IMG/VR virus record: IMGVR_UViG_3300045199_000074 | Strand: one strand, 5' to 3' | Source of the DNA: a virus | DNA: 64,000 bases | Part shown: positions 1-60,635 of the stretch, in pieces | Numbering within the stretch: position 1 is the stretch's first letter | Layout of the letters: every line of letters starts with the position of its first letter | Notes under the pieces: model-generated | What the model was told of the DNA's origin: nothing | The model's database searches: none | What the model saw: the letters and a program-made list of their open reading frames with translations, nothing else | Program-made: the position numbers and the translations under genes

Positions 1-45
1 GGTGACGTTGGTGGTATTAATCGCGATAGCTTGCACGAAACGCAT
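1..45 (-). CDS. 5' end of a CDS running off the window (MRFVQAIAINTTNVT...)
   Basis: ATG at 45 on the minus strand, preceded by AGGAG/AAGG; open to the window edge. Confidence 0.4.
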   Translation of the reverse strand, partial: MRFVQAIAINTTNVT

Positions 46-265
46 CTGAAAACCTTTTTCTCCTGAGCTTTAATAGCTCTATTTTTAATAATTATACTGA
101 CGGCGAGATAATGTCAATTTATGAAATCTTCCATACTGCGTTTTTTTAAACCGCCATAAAGGTGACTTATTAGAACCTCATTACTATTTTTTGAAGAATG
201 CGACGTTCTACATCTTCGCTGGTTCCTATGAAATGTTACGTATCCGATAAAAATATGTCGCTTCA

Positions 266-6967: not shown

Positions 6968-6992
6968 AAAAAAGGCCCTCCGGGGCCTTTTT
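6968..6992. terminator. Bidirectional intrinsic terminator
   Basis: A-run, GGCCC-TCCG-GGGCC, T-run between dotA and the convergent tRNA cluster. Confidence 0.8.
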
Positions 6993-7067: not shown

Positions 7068-7142
7068 TGGTACCGCTGAGGAGAATCGAACTCCCATTTT
7101 CTGATTGAAAATCAGACGTCCTAACCATTAGACGACAGCGAC
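7068..7142 (-). tRNA. tRNA-Glu(TTC)
   Basis: Cloverleaf; anticodon arm TCTGA-TTTTCAA-TCAGA; T-loop TTCGATT; encoded CCA. Confidence 0.9.
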
Positions 7143-7144
7143 AC

Positions 7145-7221
7145 TGGCGGCGATGACGGGAATCGAACCCGTAACCTTCTGATCGACAGTCAGATGCTCT
7201 AACCAATTGAGCTACACCACC
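7145..7221 (-). tRNA. tRNA-Asp(GTC)
   Basis: Cloverleaf; TCTGA-CTGTCGA-TCAGA; G73; encoded CCA. Confidence 0.93.
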
Positions 7222-7222
7222 G

Positions 7223-7294
7223 TACCGCCAACGGGGTTCGAACCCGTGTCACCGCCTTGAGAGGGCAGCATCCTAACCACTAGAAGATGGCGGC
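7223..7294 (-). tRNA. tRNA-Glu(CTC), no encoded CCA
   Basis: Cloverleaf; CTGCC-CTCTCAA-GGCGG; a single C separates the discriminator from tRNA-Asp. Confidence 0.9.
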
Positions 7295-7338: not shown

Positions 7339-7417
7339 TTGATGATCTATTTATTGCATATTAAAAAACTGTCGTCAATATATAAAATTCATTTTCTTTA
7401 ATATTTTCAATAACTTA
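7339..7417 (-). promoter_or_regulatory. Sigma70-type promoter of tRNA cluster 1 with an upstream IHF-like site
   Basis: TTGACG at 7378-7373; same layout as 24197-24275; TTTCAATAACTTA resembles WATCAANNNNTTR. Confidence 0.6.
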
Positions 7418-7470: not shown

Positions 7471-7524
7471 TCATTTGGTTTTGTCACGTTCTCGTTCGTC
7501 GCTATCGTCGTCGCCTTCTGGCAT
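7471..7524 (-). CDS. Putative 17-aa Asp/Glu-rich peptide MPEGDDDSDERERDKTK
   Basis: Strong AAGGAG RBS 6 nt before ATG; below the ORF-track cutoff. Confidence 0.35.
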   Translation of the reverse strand: MPEGDDDSDERERDKTK

Positions 7525-7572
7525 TGACTTCTCCTTTCTTTCTCAATCATTTCGGGTTGTAACTTGGAAAAT

Positions 7573-7596
7573 AAAAAAGGGCCGCAATTGCGACCC
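7573..7596 (-). terminator. Intrinsic terminator GGGTCGC-AATT-GCGGCCC-T6
   Basis: GC hairpin followed by T-run on the minus strand. Confidence 0.7.
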
Positions 7597-7653
7597 AAAA
7601 AAGAAATTACCTATCTTTTTAACGGCCGCGTGCTTGACGGCCGCCGATAACGG

Positions 7654-7719
7654 CTACCGCCGGGTGATATCTTCTTCCCGACGTTCTTCAGTACGAATGA
7701 TTAGTGATATGCCGTTCAT
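7654..7719 (-). CDS. Putative 21-aa leader peptide MNGISLIIRTEERREEDITRR
   Basis: TTGACT-17nt-TAAAAC promoter (7770-7742), GGAG RBS, TAG stop embedded in a hairpin. Confidence 0.5.
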   Translation of the reverse strand: MNGISLIIRTEERREEDITRR

Positions 7720-7840
7720 TTTTAACTCCAATGTTATGTATGTTTTAAATGACCCTTTAGAAACAGTCAAGTTTTTCCATTTTTCTATATGTTATTTCAT
7801 AGTTTTCTATTACATTCGCCTTGAAAGATTTGAGGTGATC

Positions 7841-9007
7841 ATGAAAATCGACATTGCAGACCCTGGCATTCATGTAATTGGTGAACTTTTATCTAGCGGC
7901 GGGTATCAATCTCGTCTCGTTGGAGGTGCTGTTCGCGATATGCTAATGGGTATGAAACCTAAAGATATGGATTTAGCGACCGATGCATTGCCAGAAATCG
8001 TAATGGAATTAGCATCTAGACAGGGTTATCGGGTGATACCAACAGGTCTTCAGCACGGCACTGTGACAATCGTTTATGATGACATCGGTTATGAAGTGAC
8101 CACTCTTCGAAAAGATGTCGACACAGACGGCCGTCATGCAACTGTGGAGTATGTCACCGATTTTGCCGAAGATGCTGCGCGTAGAGACTTCACCATTAAC
8201 GCTATGTCAGCCTCTGTTGATGGCGAAGTTTATGATTATTTTGGTGGTTTGAAGGACCTTGAGGAAGGTCGTGTCCGATTTGTAGGTGATGCACACCAGC
8301 GTATTGAAGAGGATTATCTGCGTATCCTGCGCTTCTTTCGTTTTCGAGCTCGGTTTGGAGGCGAAGAGACCGAACTCGATCTGAAGGCGATCAAAGATAA
8401 TTCCCACGGCCTTTCCGGCATCTCAGTTGAGCGTGTCTGGAGTGAAATTGATAAAATATTACAATATTCAAATGGTACAGACCAGTTGGCGTTAATGGCC
8501 GATTTGGGTGTTGCCCAGGTTGTCGGCCTCCCGATTGACGAAGACAACATCACAATTGCGCGTGATGCAAGGGAGTTTGGCGCTCGTTCATCTGTGATGT
8601 TGGGCATTCTGGCAGGAAATGAAGATTATGCTGGAAGTCTTGCAACGCGCTGGAAGTTGTCCAATTCCGAGATGAAAGATGCAGTCTTGGCGTCTCAAAT
8701 CATTGCTATTTCCGAATACGAACCCCATTACTGGATGACTCAGGCAGTAAACGGTCTTGATCCCACTGTTGCATGTCCTATTCTGTCTGCAATTGGTGCT
8801 CATGAAGCTGCAAAGGCTTTGTCTGGAGATATTCCCGTTTTCCCTCTTAAGGGGCGTGATCTCATTGGTTTAGTCGATAAAGGACCGACGATGGGAGCTG
8901 TTTTACGTGATGCCAACTCAAAGTGGATTGACTCCGGATTTAAGCTTACAAAAGAAGAGCTCATTGCCGATATTGTTAATGTTGGCCCAACTGTTGGTAG
9001 GCTGTAA
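7841..9007 (+). CDS. cca: Class II CCA-adding tRNA nucleotidyltransferase
   Basis: VGGAVRD, DMDLAT, EVTTLR, DGRH loop, RRDFTINAM and EDYLRILRFFRF motifs; start after GAGG. Confidence 0.92.
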   Translation: MKIDIADPGIHVIGELLSSGGYQSRLVGGAVRDMLMGMKPKDMDLATDALPEIVMELASRQGYRVIPTGLQHGTVTIVYDDIGYEVTTLRKDVDTDGRHATVEYVTDFAEDAARRDFTINAMSASVDGEVYDYFGGLKDLEEGRVRFVGDAHQRIEEDYLRILRFFRFRARFGGEETELDLKAIKDNSHGLSGISVERVWSEIDKILQYSNGTDQLALMADLGVAQVVGLPIDEDNITIARDAREFGARSSVMLGILAGNEDYAGSLATRWKLSNSEMKDAVLASQIIAISEYEPHYWMTQAVNGLDPTVACPILSAIGAHEAAKALSGDIPVFPLKGRDLIGLVDKGPTMGAVLRDANSKWIDSGFKLTKEELIADIVNVGPTVGRL

Positions 9008-13052: not shown

Positions 13053-15419
13053 TTAAAGTGAAGGGCCAGATCTGACCAAGTCATGATCCAAATGTGCTTC
13101 GTAAGCCTTACGAAGGGCAATAATATCGGCTTTCAAGGTGTCGTTGCTCTGCGTCAGACACCAATCACGGAAGCTATGAGCAAGCTCGATCTCAGCGTCA
13201 TCAGGTTGGCCTCCATCTGGTTTGCGTGTATGCGACCATGTGAATTCATTACCCTTTTCTCGTGATGCAACGATACGATCTTTCACGCTGCGCATCTGCT
13301 TCCAGAACGCATAAAATGGCAGCTTGACCTTGGTCATGTAGCCAACAGCATCTTCGATCACCAAGCCTTCCACATGCTCACCGCCAACGCGGTAGTTCAT
13401 GTCAGTAGTCGCCTTCTTGTGCCAGCCAGCGAACGAAGCAGCATTCTGGAATGTCATCGCTAGCTTCTTCGTTTCGAGACCAAACTTTCGGCCAACAGCC
13501 TCGACCACGCTGAAACCTGCCTTCTCAAAACTTTCCGAACGACGAATAATATCGAGCAAAACTATTTTTGGTTTATCGTACTCGATCATGTGAGGGTCAT
13601 TGAGCGGATCAATCACTTCCCACGTCATCGAAGATTCTGTATCACGAAGATAGCGACGGATTTTCTCCAACTGAACGGCGCTCAGCTGGTTAATTGCAAT
13701 ATTCTTGAAAATATCAGCGAAATCACCATCTGGCGTGGATTTTGAAGCGATAAACAAGCTGTCTGTCTTTTCATCGTAACCCATATTTCCAAGGAAACCG
13801 TTATATTTCACGTAAAGTTTGATCGGGAATTGCATGTTTTTGGCAAGGTTTGCTATTTCAGTTTCTTCCCGTTCGCCCACATTGAAAAATTTATCGTATC
13901 CACGAGAAACTATTTTGCTCGTTTTCCGTTCAAGAAAAAGCCCGCGCGCCTTCACAACAACATCATCCCAAGAACGGTCAAAAAACACCTTCTTGGTGAA
14001 ATTAAGCGAATATACATGCGGGAATCGTTCGCTCGACTTTTCTCGAACGCCTTCATGTTCATGCATAGACTTCAGGAGACTTGAATCCATCTCTGTCGAT
14101 TTTCCGTCAGGATTGATAATCCAATGGGGCAGCATTTTACGTTGAGCCTTTCTAACTTCTGTAATCCTGGTTTCGAGAGCCAGTCGCTCCTTGAGTGGTC
14201 GATAGACATGGTTCTTGAATGCTTTGGTGTTCCAACCATTGCCATCGAGAATGCAAATTCGCAGATTGCCGCCGTGTTCGACTGAGTCTTCGAGATTGAA
14301 CGAGTGTTCGGTGGCCGCAATATCAACATTGCCGTGATTGCGGTGTCCGTGAACCTGGAAACCTCGCTTGCTGTTGCGCTCGAACTGCTCATCAATCGGG
14401 TCTTCCCAGTGGCCTGTGCCATGGGAATATTGATTCAGAGAAATCAGGTGAGGCTTATCGGGGAATGTGCTTAATCCTGCGTGGGTAACGAGAACCTCAG
14501 CGCCCTTGAAGCTGTACTGGAGAAATTCCTTAGCCTTCTGACATACGGCTTCAGCATCAGCAGGAGTTATGCCTGCTTCGATAAGCTGCGGAAGCGTTCT
14601 GAGGGCGAACTCTCCACTTTTTGCATCTTCACCACGCGCCCAACGGTCGAGATGATCTTCATGATTGCCCCATAGAAGGGTGACGTTCTCCCTGTGAAGA
14701 GCATTGTCGACGAACCAGCGCATCACTTTGCCGTTTTCGATGCCTCGATCAAGCAGGTCTCCCACAAAGACGTACTTGTAGTCGTCATCAAAACCATTCG
14801 CGAGTGGCCCGCCTTCTCCCGCCAATACGGTGAAGCAACCTTGCAGGTCTCCAATGTGAATTACGCCCTTATAGCGGTCGCTAAAGTCATGAACGGGCTC
14901 ACGTAGCCACGCATCCAGTTCACTTATGTGACTACCGTCTTCCTTGCCGTTAATAATTGTAATGCCATCGACATCGTCTCTTATGCCAGCTTCGATGAGC
15001 TGTGCATGCATTTCTCTAACTCTGAACTCAGAAACCCGGTTAACTTCCTGGCGTTCACTGTTTCGTTTCAACGCCAATTCTACTGGAATTGAAGACATAT
15101 CAAGAACAGCGATTTCATACCGATGTGGTTTTGCCATATCAGCTAAACGCTTCAAGTTTGAACGTTCTATGAGCGTCGTGTCTATTGCTAGTGTCTCCCC
15201 TCTAGACATCCGCTCCGATGCGAATTGATTAAGCATCGCGAAAGCTCTCTCATTGACATCCTGATTAACGATCATTTGCCCTTCGCTTGTCAGGAATGGT
15301 GCCGCGATTGTCGATCTGATATTGTCGGCGGACAGCGTCCATTGCTCTATCCCTATTGCCTTGAGAGCGTGTGACTTTCCAGATCCAGGTTGGCCGCGCG
15401 TGATTATTAATTTTCTCAT
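13053..15419 (-). CDS. Trifunctional RNA repair enzyme: polynucleotide kinase + metallophosphoesterase + Rnl1-type RNA ligase
   Basis: P-loop GQPGSGKS; GDLQG, GDLLDRG, GNHE; ligase motifs KFFN, KYNG, EGLV and KVK. Confidence 0.88.
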   Translation of the reverse strand: MRKLIITRGQPGSGKSHALKAIGIEQWTLSADNIRSTIAAPFLTSEGQMIVNQDVNERAFAMLNQFASERMSRGETLAIDTTLIERSNLKRLADMAKPHRYEIAVLDMSSIPVELALKRNSERQEVNRVSEFRVREMHAQLIEAGIRDDVDGITIINGKEDGSHISELDAWLREPVHDFSDRYKGVIHIGDLQGCFTVLAGEGGPLANGFDDDYKYVFVGDLLDRGIENGKVMRWFVDNALHRENVTLLWGNHEDHLDRWARGEDAKSGEFALRTLPQLIEAGITPADAEAVCQKAKEFLQYSFKGAEVLVTHAGLSTFPDKPHLISLNQYSHGTGHWEDPIDEQFERNSKRGFQVHGHRNHGNVDIAATEHSFNLEDSVEHGGNLRICILDGNGWNTKAFKNHVYRPLKERLALETRITEVRKAQRKMLPHWIINPDGKSTEMDSSLLKSMHEHEGVREKSSERFPHVYSLNFTKKVFFDRSWDDVVVKARGLFLERKTSKIVSRGYDKFFNVGEREETEIANLAKNMQFPIKLYVKYNGFLGNMGYDEKTDSLFIASKSTPDGDFADIFKNIAINQLSAVQLEKIRRYLRDTESSMTWEVIDPLNDPHMIEYDKPKIVLLDIIRRSESFEKAGFSVVEAVGRKFGLETKKLAMTFQNAASFAGWHKKATTDMNYRVGGEHVEGLVIEDAVGYMTKVKLPFYAFWKQMRSVKDRIVASREKGNEFTWSHTRKPDGGQPDDAEIELAHSFRDWCLTQSNDTLKADIIALRKAYEAHLDHDLVRSGPSL

Positions 15420-15568: not shown

Positions 15569-16396
15569 ATGAGCAGAGTGGATGACGTCCTTGGTGATGA
15601 GATCAAGGCACATGAAAAATTGAATTCGGATCGTGCGGCAAATATCGGTGATCCTGTAGTGATACGTGTTGACGGCGCTTCATTTTCCAAGTTTACGCGC
15701 AATGCATCAAAACCATTTGATGAACGCATTTCTGCTGCAATGGTTCACGCAACAAAATCTACTGTTGATGAATTTAATTGCCGTTTAGGCTATACGCAGT
15801 CTGATGAAATCAGTTTTTTGCTTTATAGCTCTGATCAGGAACTCCCTTTAAGTGGTCGTTATGAAAAATTGGCAAGCCGTTTTGCGGCACACGTAACTGC
15901 TCATTTCTTGAAAAAGGGTCTTGAGTTATTTCCTGAGCTAATTGGAGAAAGGCTTCCTTCTTTTGACGGCCGTGCAATGTCTTTTCCAACATTAGATTTG
16001 GCCGCCAAAGCAATCCTATGGCGTGAACTTGATGCTCGGAGAAATGCCGTCAGCATGGCTGCGCGTTCTGTCTTTTCGCCAAATGAACTTAGTGGGCGAT
16101 CATCATGGGAACAGCGAAAAATGATGTCTGCACGCGGTCTGGAATTCGACGACTTTCCAGAAACTTTCAGGCGCGGCGCTTTTGTTCGGCGGGTGAAGGT
16201 AGTGAGAGAATTGACGGTAGAGGAGCTGTCTCGGATTCCTGAAAAACACCGACCAAATGGGCCAGTTGAACGCTCAAGTATCGAGCAGGTTACTATGCCT
16301 AATTTGTCTCTTGTTGATAATCTTGCCGATGTCCTTGTTTTCAATGCTGATCCTATCGTCGCGGAACGCAAGTTTGCATTAGCCGTTACGGGGTAA
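15569..16396 (+). CDS. Thg1-like 3'-5' RNA polymerase (tRNA-His guanylyltransferase family)
   Basis: RVDGASFSKFT, YTQSDEISF, FDGR and WRELDARRN motifs. Confidence 0.9.
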   Translation: MSRVDDVLGDEIKAHEKLNSDRAANIGDPVVIRVDGASFSKFTRNASKPFDERISAAMVHATKSTVDEFNCRLGYTQSDEISFLLYSSDQELPLSGRYEKLASRFAAHVTAHFLKKGLELFPELIGERLPSFDGRAMSFPTLDLAAKAILWRELDARRNAVSMAARSVFSPNELSGRSSWEQRKMMSARGLEFDDFPETFRRGAFVRRVKVVRELTVEELSRIPEKHRPNGPVERSSIEQVTMPNLSLVDNLADVLVFNADPIVAERKFALAVTG

Positions 16397-24347: not shown

Positions 24348-24428
24348 GGCACTGCGCAATAAAAAGGCCGCGAGGACATCGCGGCTCACAAAGAGTACGA
24401 ATATCCTTCTGCTAGGATGCGCAGTGCT
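24348..24428. other. Structured element: long stem enclosing two hairpins, including a minus-strand terminator
   Basis: GCACTGCGCA/TGCGCAGTGC; GCCGCGA/TCGCGGC with adjacent A-run; ATCCT/AGGAT. Confidence 0.55.
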
Positions 24429-24641
24429 GTGGTTTTCGTTTAAGTGCAGTCATAAAAGTTGACATTGTAATTTCCTTGTATTTTCAGAATTACCCATACC
24501 CGATCTATTCGGGCTAAACAAGCGCATCTTATTCATTATTTCATGTAAAAATCTGATCTAATTATTCTCTCCTTATTAAATTTCGTTGCGGAATACGATA
24601 TGTCGAGCCATCATAAATTGAATTAATCAGGAGCAAAAGCA

Positions 24642-54862: not shown

Positions 54863-56308
54863 TCATCCTTTTACAGTGATAATTGGTCTCATCTTTGCAA
54901 CCTTGTTGACCATTCCTTTGTCTTTCATTGGATAGACAACATTTTCGATTGGCCGATATGCATCAGGAGCTTCTTCTTTTAATCGGCCGACGATTTCGTG
55001 AATAATATCGGACCTGGATCGTATTTTTTGGTCATTGAGATTGATCGGCGTAACCACCCGTAGGTCAACCGGATGTTTAGCCTCAGCTCGCGCTTCTTGT
55101 CGTGACAAGCGTCGTCCCGCTCCATGGGCTGCAGACTGAAGCGTGTCTTCATTGCCAAGTCCCTTGAGAAGCCATGTTCCGTCTCCCATCGATCCTGGTA
55201 GAATTACTGGTTCTCCAAGCCATTCGTACGGAGAACCATGCTGGAAGCCTTGGCCTCGGGCTGGACAAGAACCCTTTCTGTGCATGTATTTGCCGCCGTT
55301 TGACCAGATAACATTGTGTGGAGCGTCATAGATCAGTTTTGCGTCAACTTGTTTCCCTAGAGCCATCTCGACGGCATGAATGGTCGCAAGACCGATCAGG
55401 AAACGGTTTGCAAAGGCGATATTGACTGCGTTTGCCTGGCCGTTGAGAAAGCGTTGCAGTTCATCCGCATGGTGTTCTGCAGAAAGGATGCGCTGATCTC
55501 CATGTCTGGTTAGCGTTCGCATTCTCTCCTTTGTCGTTGATCCAACATATTGCCCGAAATCGAGGGAACCAGAGTGAACGACCATGATGACAGAACCAGT
55601 TTTTATGCCAGTTGCCATGGCAAATGCGCCGTCGACGATCTTGTCGATAATACCGAGTTCGATAAAGTGATTTCCTCCTCCGATAGATCCGAGGATTGCA
55701 TCGTAACGATAGCCGTCATTGAGATTCCCGTATTCAATAAAGCCACTGTCGATGCTTGACGATGCGAAGAAGCCATCATCGCAGGTCCTGCTAATGTCTC
55801 TCCATGCAGTTTTTAGCTCTAGGTTTCTTAGGAGTCCCTTGGCGTCCACAGCCAGTGATTCCAGCAGTCCTGGGATGCCTTCCCTGAGGATTGCGTGACG
55901 TTGCTTTCCATATAGTGAAATGTTTCTGCCGCCTTGGAAATGAACATGACGCAAATGGCCATCCAGCGAGCTAGCGGCCAGATCGTCCTCGGTTACACCG
56001 TCAAGTACGACCATACGCATGCCACACCCAATGTCGTTGCCGATGATATGTGGCATCGTAGCGCCTTGGATGGCCATGGCTACGCCGACTGGCACAGGTC
56101 TACCAGCATGAAAGTCAGGTGTAGTAACGATCCGTTCTACAGTCGCAGAAGCTTGTTCAAACGCCTCAAACGTCGGAATGGCGTTCGCTAGATCATTAAG
56201 CGCCAATCTCCTGTGTCGTTCAGGTTCGTTGCAGGATGTGATAGTGTGAACGTCGTGACCGGAAATATAGACGCGACTATTCTCAGGCAAAATGCCAGTG
56301 ATTTTCAT
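54863..56308 (-). CDS. rtcB: RtcB-family RNA ligase
   Basis: PDFHAG, DIGCG, GGGNHF, HSGS, HN, HRKG and HGAGR motifs. Confidence 0.9.
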   Translation of the reverse strand: MKITGILPENSRVYISGHDVHTITSCNEPERHRRLALNDLANAIPTFEAFEQASATVERIVTTPDFHAGRPVPVGVAMAIQGATMPHIIGNDIGCGMRMVVLDGVTEDDLAASSLDGHLRHVHFQGGRNISLYGKQRHAILREGIPGLLESLAVDAKGLLRNLELKTAWRDISRTCDDGFFASSSIDSGFIEYGNLNDGYRYDAILGSIGGGNHFIELGIIDKIVDGAFAMATGIKTGSVIMVVHSGSLDFGQYVGSTTKERMRTLTRHGDQRILSAEHHADELQRFLNGQANAVNIAFANRFLIGLATIHAVEMALGKQVDAKLIYDAPHNVIWSNGGKYMHRKGSCPARGQGFQHGSPYEWLGEPVILPGSMGDGTWLLKGLGNEDTLQSAAHGAGRRLSRQEARAEAKHPVDLRVVTPINLNDQKIRSRSDIIHEIVGRLKEEAPDAYRPIENVVYPMKDKGMVNKVAKMRPIITVKG

Positions 56309-59718: not shown

Positions 59719-59793
59719 ATACTGACATTGCTGCCAGTTTATTCTTACTGGCGGGGAAAGGTTCTAATCCTTTAACAACCGCACGCCAGATTT

Positions 59794-59869
59794 TGGTGGG
59801 CTGAAGGAGAATTGAACTCCTGCCAGACAGGATCTCTGTCCCTGTTATCCTTTACAACAGTCTCAGCCC
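59794..59869 (-). ncRNA. Non-canonical tRNA-like RNA (6-bp D stem, 5-nt anticodon loop)
   Basis: GGGCTGA/TCAGCCC-A-CCA acceptor; AGGAG-TTCAATT-CTCCT T arm; GACAG-AGATC-CTGTC. Confidence 0.75.
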
Positions 59870-60406: not shown

Positions 60407-60421
60407 ATATAATTTTAGACA

Positions 60422-60635
60422 AAATAAAAGCCCCGAACTTATATTCGAGGCTTCATCGGATGCGGCACTGTACTCATCGAGTCAACAGATGTTTCCGCCT
60501 CCAGGGAAGCCCCTGTAGGTTCTCCAACATGTCCATGTTGTTCTCGTGTTGCGCATCTTTCAGTCTTTCTTTTTGGATAAGGACCCATGTCCATCTCGTT
60601 ACATCCTTTATGAATTGTTGGCTGCAAATTGTCAA
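60422..60635 (-). promoter_or_regulatory. Promoter plus structured leader/ncRNA ending in a terminator just before tRNA cluster 3
   Basis: TTGACA at 60635-60630; terminator AAGCCTCGAA/TTCGGGGCTT plus T-run at 60453-60422. Confidence 0.5.

Follow-up and report, generated by a model that had tools for sequence, protein, structure and literature searches.

The window analysed here is a 64,000-nt stretch of DNA which carries on its minus strand three clustered tRNA genes, viz. tRNA-Glu(CTC), tRNA-Asp(GTC) and tRNA-Glu(TTC), at 7068..7294 (called by ARAGORN and Rfam); tRNA-Glu(CTC) adjoins tRNA-Asp, and CCA is not encoded. The sequence at 6969..6992 forms a hairpin flanked by T runs on both sides, which is likely to be the common end of the tRNA unit and of the convergent dotA/traY gene. 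Alongside this DotA/TraY homologue, the proteins encoded in the window include GyrB, RecA, ribonucleotide reductase and a set for tRNA maturation and repair, made up of the CCA-adding enzyme (7841-9007, divergent from the leader promoter P1), a kinase-phosphatase-RNA ligase protein (13053-15419), Thg1 (15569-16396) and RtcB (54863-56308). The RNA-repair genes are compatible with a setting of tRNA damage, without proving such damage.

The best plasmid match for the CCA enzyme, DotA and GyrB of the window is pRlX5, a 1.32 Mb plasmid of R. leguminosarum with the same gene order, and the window is therefore read as part of a Dot/Icm-type alphaproteobacterial megaplasmid. A jumbo-phage origin, prompted by matches of the CCA enzyme, was rejected once the synteny with pRlX5 emerged. 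No relatives of the window were found among the viral contigs scanned, the fetched stretches of Atu_ph07 and Phosso hold 0 and 1 tRNA, respectively, and blastn against phage records aligned nothing beyond the tRNAs. A scan of genome contigs gave a single unrelated locus, which lacks tRNAs and belongs to an order in which a distant DotA occurs in 1 of 101 genomes. Homologues are present in Agrobacterium rubi, Rhizobium MHM7A and BK176, and Mesorhizobium SP-1A, and the sequencing runs containing the window are labelled ant metagenome. The leader region gave no blastn alignment with pRlX5. A link of the leader to the divergent cca gene was also rejected, since cca is not adjacent in pRlX5 or in the metagenome locus L049.

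The DNA upstream of the tRNA genes, on the same strand, begins with a putative sigma70-like promoter, P1 (7742..7770), in which TTGACT at 7770-7765 is followed after 17 nt by TAAAAC. P1 was not called in a consensus promoter scan of the window because the scan demands T at the last position of the -10 box, a T reported to be often missing from alphaproteobacterial promoters (PMC7703639). It is followed by a Shine-Dalgarno-like GGAG (7726..7729) and by ORF1 (7654..7719), a 21-codon reading frame encoding MNGISLIIRTEERREEDITRR, whose candidate control codons are Glu15, Glu16 and Asp17, a consecutive run of no more than three, along with Glu11 and Glu12. These elements lie on the minus strand exactly where the preliminary description had placed them, with the codons it quoted.

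Within and beyond ORF1 lies a series of overlapping pairings. Helix A:B (7683-7677 with 7664-7658) lies within ORF1 and is predicted to form if ORF1 is untranslated; helix B:C (7636..7661), which includes the stop codon, is predicted with a ribosome at or before Asp17; and helix C:D (7621..7645) is predicted with a ribosome at the stop codon. Segment D can instead pair with segment E (7629-7624 with 7595-7590, span 7590..7629) in a candidate antiterminator, inside which an inner hairpin (7620-7614 with 7604-7598) closes and stacks. Segment E is also the 5' arm of a predicted intrinsic terminator E:F, which with its U tract spans 7573..7596; its stem (7596-7579) has a z of -4.3, a value reached by none of 200 shuffles. 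The description from the letters had proposed three of these pairings, B:C and C:D (its 1:2 and 2:3) and that of D with the terminator arm, and folding bore out each of them. It had further noted a second acidic peptide before the tRNA genes, and ORF2 (7471..7524) is indeed a 17-codon frame with its own Shine-Dalgarno sequence, encoding MPEGDDDSDERERDKTK, in which 8 of the 17 codons are Asp or Glu. Folding of the ORF2 region gave nothing beyond shuffles (z -1.0). Between ORF2 and the tRNA genes lies TAAnnnnTTGAAA (7405..7417), of the form TAAnnnnTTGARA, which we take to resemble an IHF site, and, downstream of it and directly before the tRNA genes, a second promoter-like site, P2 (7350..7378), with TTGACG at 7378-7373. 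A search of the leader region against Rfam returned only tRNA at gathering score and nothing significant at E up to 10; there was no match to a T-box model, to the His leader or to other amino-acid operon leaders of Rfam.

The Glu/Asp content of ORF1 (5 of 20 codons) has a p of 0.006 against random small ORFs and of about 0.11, calculated by hand, against the D+E share of 0.13 in the long ORFs of the window, and taken alone it is weak evidence. That ORF1 and its hairpins are more than a product of chance follows from their conservation in 9/9 relatives and from the modelled switch, which only 1 of 400 shuffles reached. The relatives come from 26 metagenome loci anchored on DotA, 16 of which lack Glu/Asp tRNAs in the fetched span; of the ten that have them, two are cut before the upstream region, leaving eight which, with pRlX5, make nine relatives with intact upstream DNA and, with the window, ten loci. 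These ten are related and fall into only a few clades, so they do not amount to ten independent trials. All nine relatives keep the promoter, a 21-codon ORF, the his-type hairpin relay, the terminator, a second acidic ORF and the second promoter.

Across the ten loci P1 has the form TTGnnn-17-TA and lies 51-60 nt upstream of the start codon, a purine-rich Shine-Dalgarno-like site precedes ORF1 in every case, and the ORF is always 21 codons long. Codons 15-17 read E, E/D, D in 10/10 loci, Asp17 and Arg21 are invariant, and the Asp17 codon is GAT throughout. Letters departing from the majority fall mostly on third positions in codons 11-17 (4/12/25 by codon position) and evenly over the three positions in codons 2-10 (36/33/38). 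The check that had been proposed, folding and covariation over homologous loci, gave two two-sided changes in B:C, one in A:B and none in D:E. The eight core pairs of B:C are 100% paired, and one of its two changed pairs involves the stop codon, TAG or TGA, with C or U as the partner; the change in A:B is from G-C to U-A in L054 and L059. Apparent A:B covariation in four loci proved to be a register shift and was left out of the count. For D:E, 90% of cells are paired, the absence of two-sided change referring to the six pairs counted. A terminator is found in all ten loci with differing sequence, and the inner hairpin of D:E is unrelated in sequence between them.

Downstream, ORF2 keeps its Shine-Dalgarno sequence, its start and its acidic N-terminus in 10/10 loci, with 8-11 D/E among the first 16 codons, and its length is not conserved (17-50 codons). 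P2, with TTGAC and a matching AT-rich element 17-18 nt further on, occurs in 10/10 loci, and TAAnnnnTTGAAA-like motifs stand 39-40 nt upstream of its -35 box in each. The caveat entered from the start, that the cluster has its own promoter, fully holds. No second U-tailed hairpin was seen between ORF2 and the tRNAs in any of the ten loci.

Some irregularities of the tRNA genes themselves were seen among the relatives. Calls with Arg anticodons (CCG, TCG) lie within the Glu/Asp clusters of L059 (1922-1998) and L050 (3789-3863); CGG at codon 13 is confined to the leader of L059. The T arm of the pRlX5 tRNA-Glu(CTC) (L003, 16056-16127) is unusual, and the gene is detected by Rfam but not by ARAGORN.

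Each leader was folded with the ribosome mimicked by keeping every base as far as +13 from the P site unpaired. With the A site at Asp17, the minimum-energy structure of all ten loci contains B:C together with the long D:E, closed by its inner hairpin. With the A site at the stop codon, C:D replaces B:C and removes segment D from the terminator arm in 9/10 loci, the exception being L044, where D:E is retained. The modelled cost of antitermination goes up from Asp17 to the stop codon in 10/10 loci, the rise coming at codons 18-20. It amounts to 9.4 kcal/mol in the window, the largest of the ten and the value that 1 of 400 shuffles reached; eight relatives were equalled by 0-5 of 150 shuffles, and L059, with 16 of 150, does not stand out from them. 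In the model without a ribosome, A:B forms in ORF1 and the cost is high again (9.6 in the window, compared to 3.7 at Asp17). In the full transcript the terminator is lower in energy at every ribosome position, by +2.5 or more kcal/mol, so any read-through must be kinetic, with D:E forming first. The leader thus combines a short ORF and a ribosome-binding site 3' of a putative promoter with cognate control codons at a fixed distance from the predicted switch, and in the models antiterminator and terminator are mutually exclusive and set by the position of the ribosome, more weakly in L044 and L059.

The arrangement is best read as a ribosome-positioned transcription attenuator, in which slow Glu/Asp codons in ORF1 would allow read-through into the Glu/Asp tRNA genes, and we assign this reading a probability of roughly 0.78. 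A ribosome that has advanced no further than Asp17 is predicted by folding to leave B:C and the antiterminator D:E in place; one that reaches the stop codon would free C:D and the terminator E:F; and with no ribosome A:B would be allowed and termination favoured, as in the his attenuator. Translation of ORF1, switching in vivo and the production of tRNA by read-through in addition to a basal amount made from P2 are inferred steps of this scheme. Sequencing runs labelled as RNA are contigs of flat depth which may contain DNA, and they speak neither for the scheme nor against it. The attenuator proposed from the letters alone thereby gains support at the sequence level, from the parts kept in 9/9 relatives, from a modelled switch that comes right after the last Glu/Asp codon and from the recurrence of the design, with matching codons, before other tRNA clusters. 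The same description had suggested loss or cleavage of tRNA as the trigger of read-through, which on sequence would be indistinguishable here from amino-acid limitation or high demand.

The same design, with codons of its own, is found before other tRNA clusters of the window. At 24360..24465, on the minus strand, a sister leader encoding MSTFMTALKRKPQHCAS is followed by a U-tailed hairpin before tRNA-Lys(CTT) and tRNA-Lys(TTT); it contains KRK, LKRK being retained in pRlX5, and its modelled switch is weak. A second, at 60420..60556 on the same strand, encodes MRNTRTTWTCWRTYRGFPGGGNIC and has a terminator about 20 nt before a tRNA-Trp/Thr/Thr/Cys/Arg/Arg cluster. It carries TRTTWTCWR, 13 of its 23 codons are cognate (p 5e-5), and the energy step falls between R12 and Y14; its Shine-Dalgarno sequence is weak, and no second promoter was seen before the cluster. 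The fourth leader, searched for on the basis of synteny with L043 and L045, is cut by the window edge (1..116, minus strand) and consists of TTGACA-17-TATAAT, AGGAG and the start of MRFVQAIAINTTNVT; it is the orthologue of the Asn/Ala/Val/Gly/Met/Ile/Thr leader, its tRNA cluster lying outside the window.

On pRlX5 there are 57 tRNA matches, in eight multi-gene clusters with leaders and three single tRNAs without. Among the 40,320 permutations of the eight leaders over their clusters the true pairing ranks first, as it does among 720 for the six leaders picked by rule. When a codon-blind rule was applied, a U-tailed hairpin was found before 22 of 25 multi-tRNA clusters, and in these 22 the rule returned the leader seen by eye in 19 cases, the same ORF from an internal start in two and a wrong frame in one, the last being the Trp leader of the window with its weak Shine-Dalgarno sequence. 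A chromosomal control, run with a slightly laxer rule on one genome of an alphaproteobacterial order (30 of 38 tRNA matches fetched), gave a hairpin before 4 of 27 tRNA units and no cognate-rich ORFs. In both Trp leaders and in the Ser/Gln, Tyr/Pro/Leu/His and Asn/Ala leaders the modelled step comes once the last cognate codons are passed; there is no clear step in the Lys and Phe/Arg leaders, and in the Gln leader it is absent. The U tail is lacking in the pRlX5 Gln leader and in a Bosea Trp/Cys leader. A gap of 10-21 nt separates the terminator from the first tRNA of the Trp and Ser/Gln clusters, before which no second promoter was seen, so read-through is the only evident route there.

Two Bosea plasmids, from RAC05 and ANAM02, show the same design by eye in 6/6 multi-tRNA clusters examined. 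The leader of a RAC05 cluster with Pro, Val and His tRNAs has the control stretch SLVSHPSLLSSLSYS, compared to LSSSSLSLSSLSYS in ANAM02, where the cluster lacks these tRNAs; Pro, Val and His codons thus occur in these stretches only with matching tRNAs in the cluster. As far as the sequences tell, leader content follows tRNA content. No leader was found at the single tRNA-Thr of RAC05 or at the sole cluster of the M. extorquens AM1 megaplasmid. For 85 of the 87 distinct anticodons in 17 leader-cluster pairs the leader contains a codon that the anticodon can read, the exact one in 68 cases, and random codons gave a mean of 50.6 readable anticodons with a maximum of 67 in 5000 draws; ten of the 17 leaders were chosen by eye and several are orthologues. 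ARAGORN calls judged doubtful (one without assignment, a long Lys in L035, two Arg in L077 and those on the opposite strand) are excluded from the count, and the pRlX5 Glu(CTC) is included on the strength of its match in Rfam. The sole two misses both belong to leaders of the window, which have no GAG for Glu(CTC) and no AAG for Lys(CTT). Amino-acid attenuators are reported to prefer one starvation-sensitive codon (PMC1183508); coverage of all isoacceptors would fit the monitoring of tRNA species better than it fits amino-acid sensing. Separately, of the 11 cognate codons that the pRlX5 leaders draw from two-codon boxes, 8 end in U, compared to background shares of 0.14-0.46, and U-ending codons are described as mostly decoded more slowly (PMC4046918).

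The other tRNA clusters of these megaplasmids thus appear to be headed by the same device, with codons for nearly every downstream anticodon, from which it is likely that the leaders jointly provide feedback control over charged-tRNA supply. A wider proposal is that the spare tRNAs of Dot/Icm-type alphaproteobacterial megaplasmids form a nearly full set monitored isoacceptor by isoacceptor, in which loss of one host tRNA, e.g. through a toxin or anticodon nuclease directed against the invader, would switch on only the replacing operon, as an on-demand counter-defence by attenuation; we offer this tentatively and consider it rather less probable than its being wrong.

Several other readings of the leader have to be weighed against these data. 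The attenuator may be real and yet have an output other than extra tRNA precursor from P1, read-through acting instead on P2, which it would open or block via the IHF-like site, or serving to express ORF2. The fixed spacing of motif and P2 and the restriction of ORF2-like starts to clusters with P2 are what such an output would lead one to expect, but there is no terminator between ORF2 and the tRNAs, the length of ORF2 is not conserved, and before the Trp and Ser/Gln tRNAs the terminators leave read-through as the only evident route; we regard it as unlikely. Decay of the device in the AT-rich replicon of the window, the device being functional in the lineage, could account for the loss of GAG and AAG, the truncated ORF2, the weak Shine-Dalgarno sequence of the Trp leader and the weak Lys switch. 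It is hard to reconcile with a window that shows the largest modelled switch of ten, has all parts intact and keeps a reader of GAA in its cluster, and is thus judged very improbable.

Stalling might alternatively be caused by the nascent peptide, through an arrest motif (REEDxxxR, for instance) that responds to a ligand or antibiotic, and not through tRNA shortage, which would agree with the invariant Arg21 and Asp17 and with the fixed length of ORF1. Codons 2-10 are nevertheless free to vary, a change of Arg14 to Leu is accompanied by one in the pairing partner, which points to a structural role for Arg14, and every cluster has a different leader matched to its own tRNAs; arrest of this kind therefore has very little probability in our assessment. 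The least probable reading, a short terminated RNA whose ORF arose by chance and which has no relation to the tRNAs, draws on the weak enrichment of ORF1 taken alone (p ~0.11) and on GC-rich repeats that permit several pairings, and is largely refuted by the 10/10 conservation, the third-position bias in the control codons and the permutation results.

Returning to the attenuator with tRNA output, the dependence of the tRNAs on read-through is affected by two features of the Glu/Asp loci: no second terminator stands before the tRNAs, yet a conserved P2 does. With P2 and its upstream motif kept in 10/10 loci the tRNAs can be made without read-through, and since P2 is as conserved as the leader, attenuation may only add to a basal tRNA supply. 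ORF2 is possibly a second codon sensor. Starts like that of ORF2 occur in clusters that also have P2 (Glu/Asp, Asn/Ala and Phe/Arg); none was observed in clusters whose terminator is followed directly by a tRNA. Before Phe/Arg clusters the ORF in this place opens with an Arg run (MRRRRRD, MRRRRRRRF), which would fit the idea of a second sensor; before Asn/Ala clusters it opens MDDDGNG though no Asp tRNA is served there, which would fit that of a shared nucleotide motif.

The closest known parallel is the hisL attenuator of the Salmonella and E. coli his operon, in which E:F terminates on fast translation, B:C and D:E form on stalling, and A:B forms with termination if the leader is untranslated (PMC4046918). 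The same six-segment relay and the same three states were obtained here from folding. In contrast, the genes after the present leader are tRNA genes and not genes for amino-acid biosynthesis, as in hisL, or for a synthetase; three to five mixed Glu/Asp codons take the place of seven His in a row, a second ORF and a second promoter are added downstream, and no Rfam leader matches the sequence. Synthetase genes too can lie under a cognate-codon leader attenuator, as pheST does in E. coli. A leader-peptide attenuator with cognate codons is also described for hisS paralogues in bacilli (PMC2965389). These systems likewise place the supply chain of translation under cognate-codon control, but there the target is a protein gene, whereas here the product would be tRNA itself, with nearly all isoacceptors covered. 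Tandem attenuators with two leader ORFs are reported for Salmonella mgtCBR (PMC3641672), which resembles the present locus in having two short ORFs in one leader and differs from it in target and signals; the present locus showed no further switchable terminator downstream of ORF2.

Spare tRNA sets on large plasmids have been described elsewhere. The trn operon (L-array) of Anabaena is a megaplasmid tRNA set induced under translational stress and co-regulated with rtcB (PMC8421152, PMC10272220), and the window likewise encodes RtcB; its control is attributed to direct repeats over the -10 box and start site of the promoter and to the repressor TrcR, acting on all genes together (PMC8421152), and that paper uses none of the words ‘attenuat’, ‘leader’ and ‘terminator’. 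Megaplasmids of Enterobacteriaceae carry tRNA blocks as here, numbering as many as 208 tRNAs, for which a role against tRNA-targeting defence has been proposed (bioRxiv 10.1101/2025.09.30.679422), and the main text of that preprint describes no regulation and contains neither ‘attenuat’ nor ‘leader’. Neither leader-peptide attenuation of tRNA genes nor a loop in which decoding speed feeds directly into the transcription of tRNA genes was found in the mostly open-access literature searched at abstract level. The mechanism of attenuation is of a known kind; what is new is the tRNA target and the operon-by-operon, near isoacceptor-complete layout. This bears on the open question of why mobile elements carry tRNA arrays and how such arrays are controlled: the leaders spell out codon by codon the signal of each operon, for which explanations based on codon use, starvation and anti-nuclease action predict different things. 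They could also be used as ready-made reporters of individual tRNA supply, and cultured hosts exist for such leaders in R. leguminosarum TP16 (pRlX5) and two Bosea strains.

A number of further features were seen around these clusters. In the Tyr/Pro/Leu/His leader of pRlX5 (L038, 3241-3408) the first half is enriched for Ala, Gly, Ile, Asn, Met and Val, residues which belong to a different cluster (z 3.4) and are perhaps the trace of fused operons. Long tRNA clusters are preceded by the motif (G/C)T(T/G)(C/T)TTTGACAT, presumably boxA-like, which is located after P2 in L035, L043-L047 and L052 and after the terminator in L038, L074 and L077. Within the Trp/Thr/Cys/Arg cluster of the window (59793-59869, minus strand) lies a tRNA-like cloverleaf with a CCA end and a 5-nt loop replacing the anticodon loop, which was called neither by ARAGORN nor by Rfam at E up to 1. 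Lastly, hairpins with the loop (C/T)TTGAAA, resembling the anticodon stem-loop of tRNA-Ser(UGA), form an array of seven in the Bosea ANAM02 plasmid (L077, 1215-1787); none occurs in the window, two lie outside tRNA genes in RAC05 (L074, at 1866 and 1968), and it is possible that they are anticodon-nuclease decoys or decayed tRNA copies.
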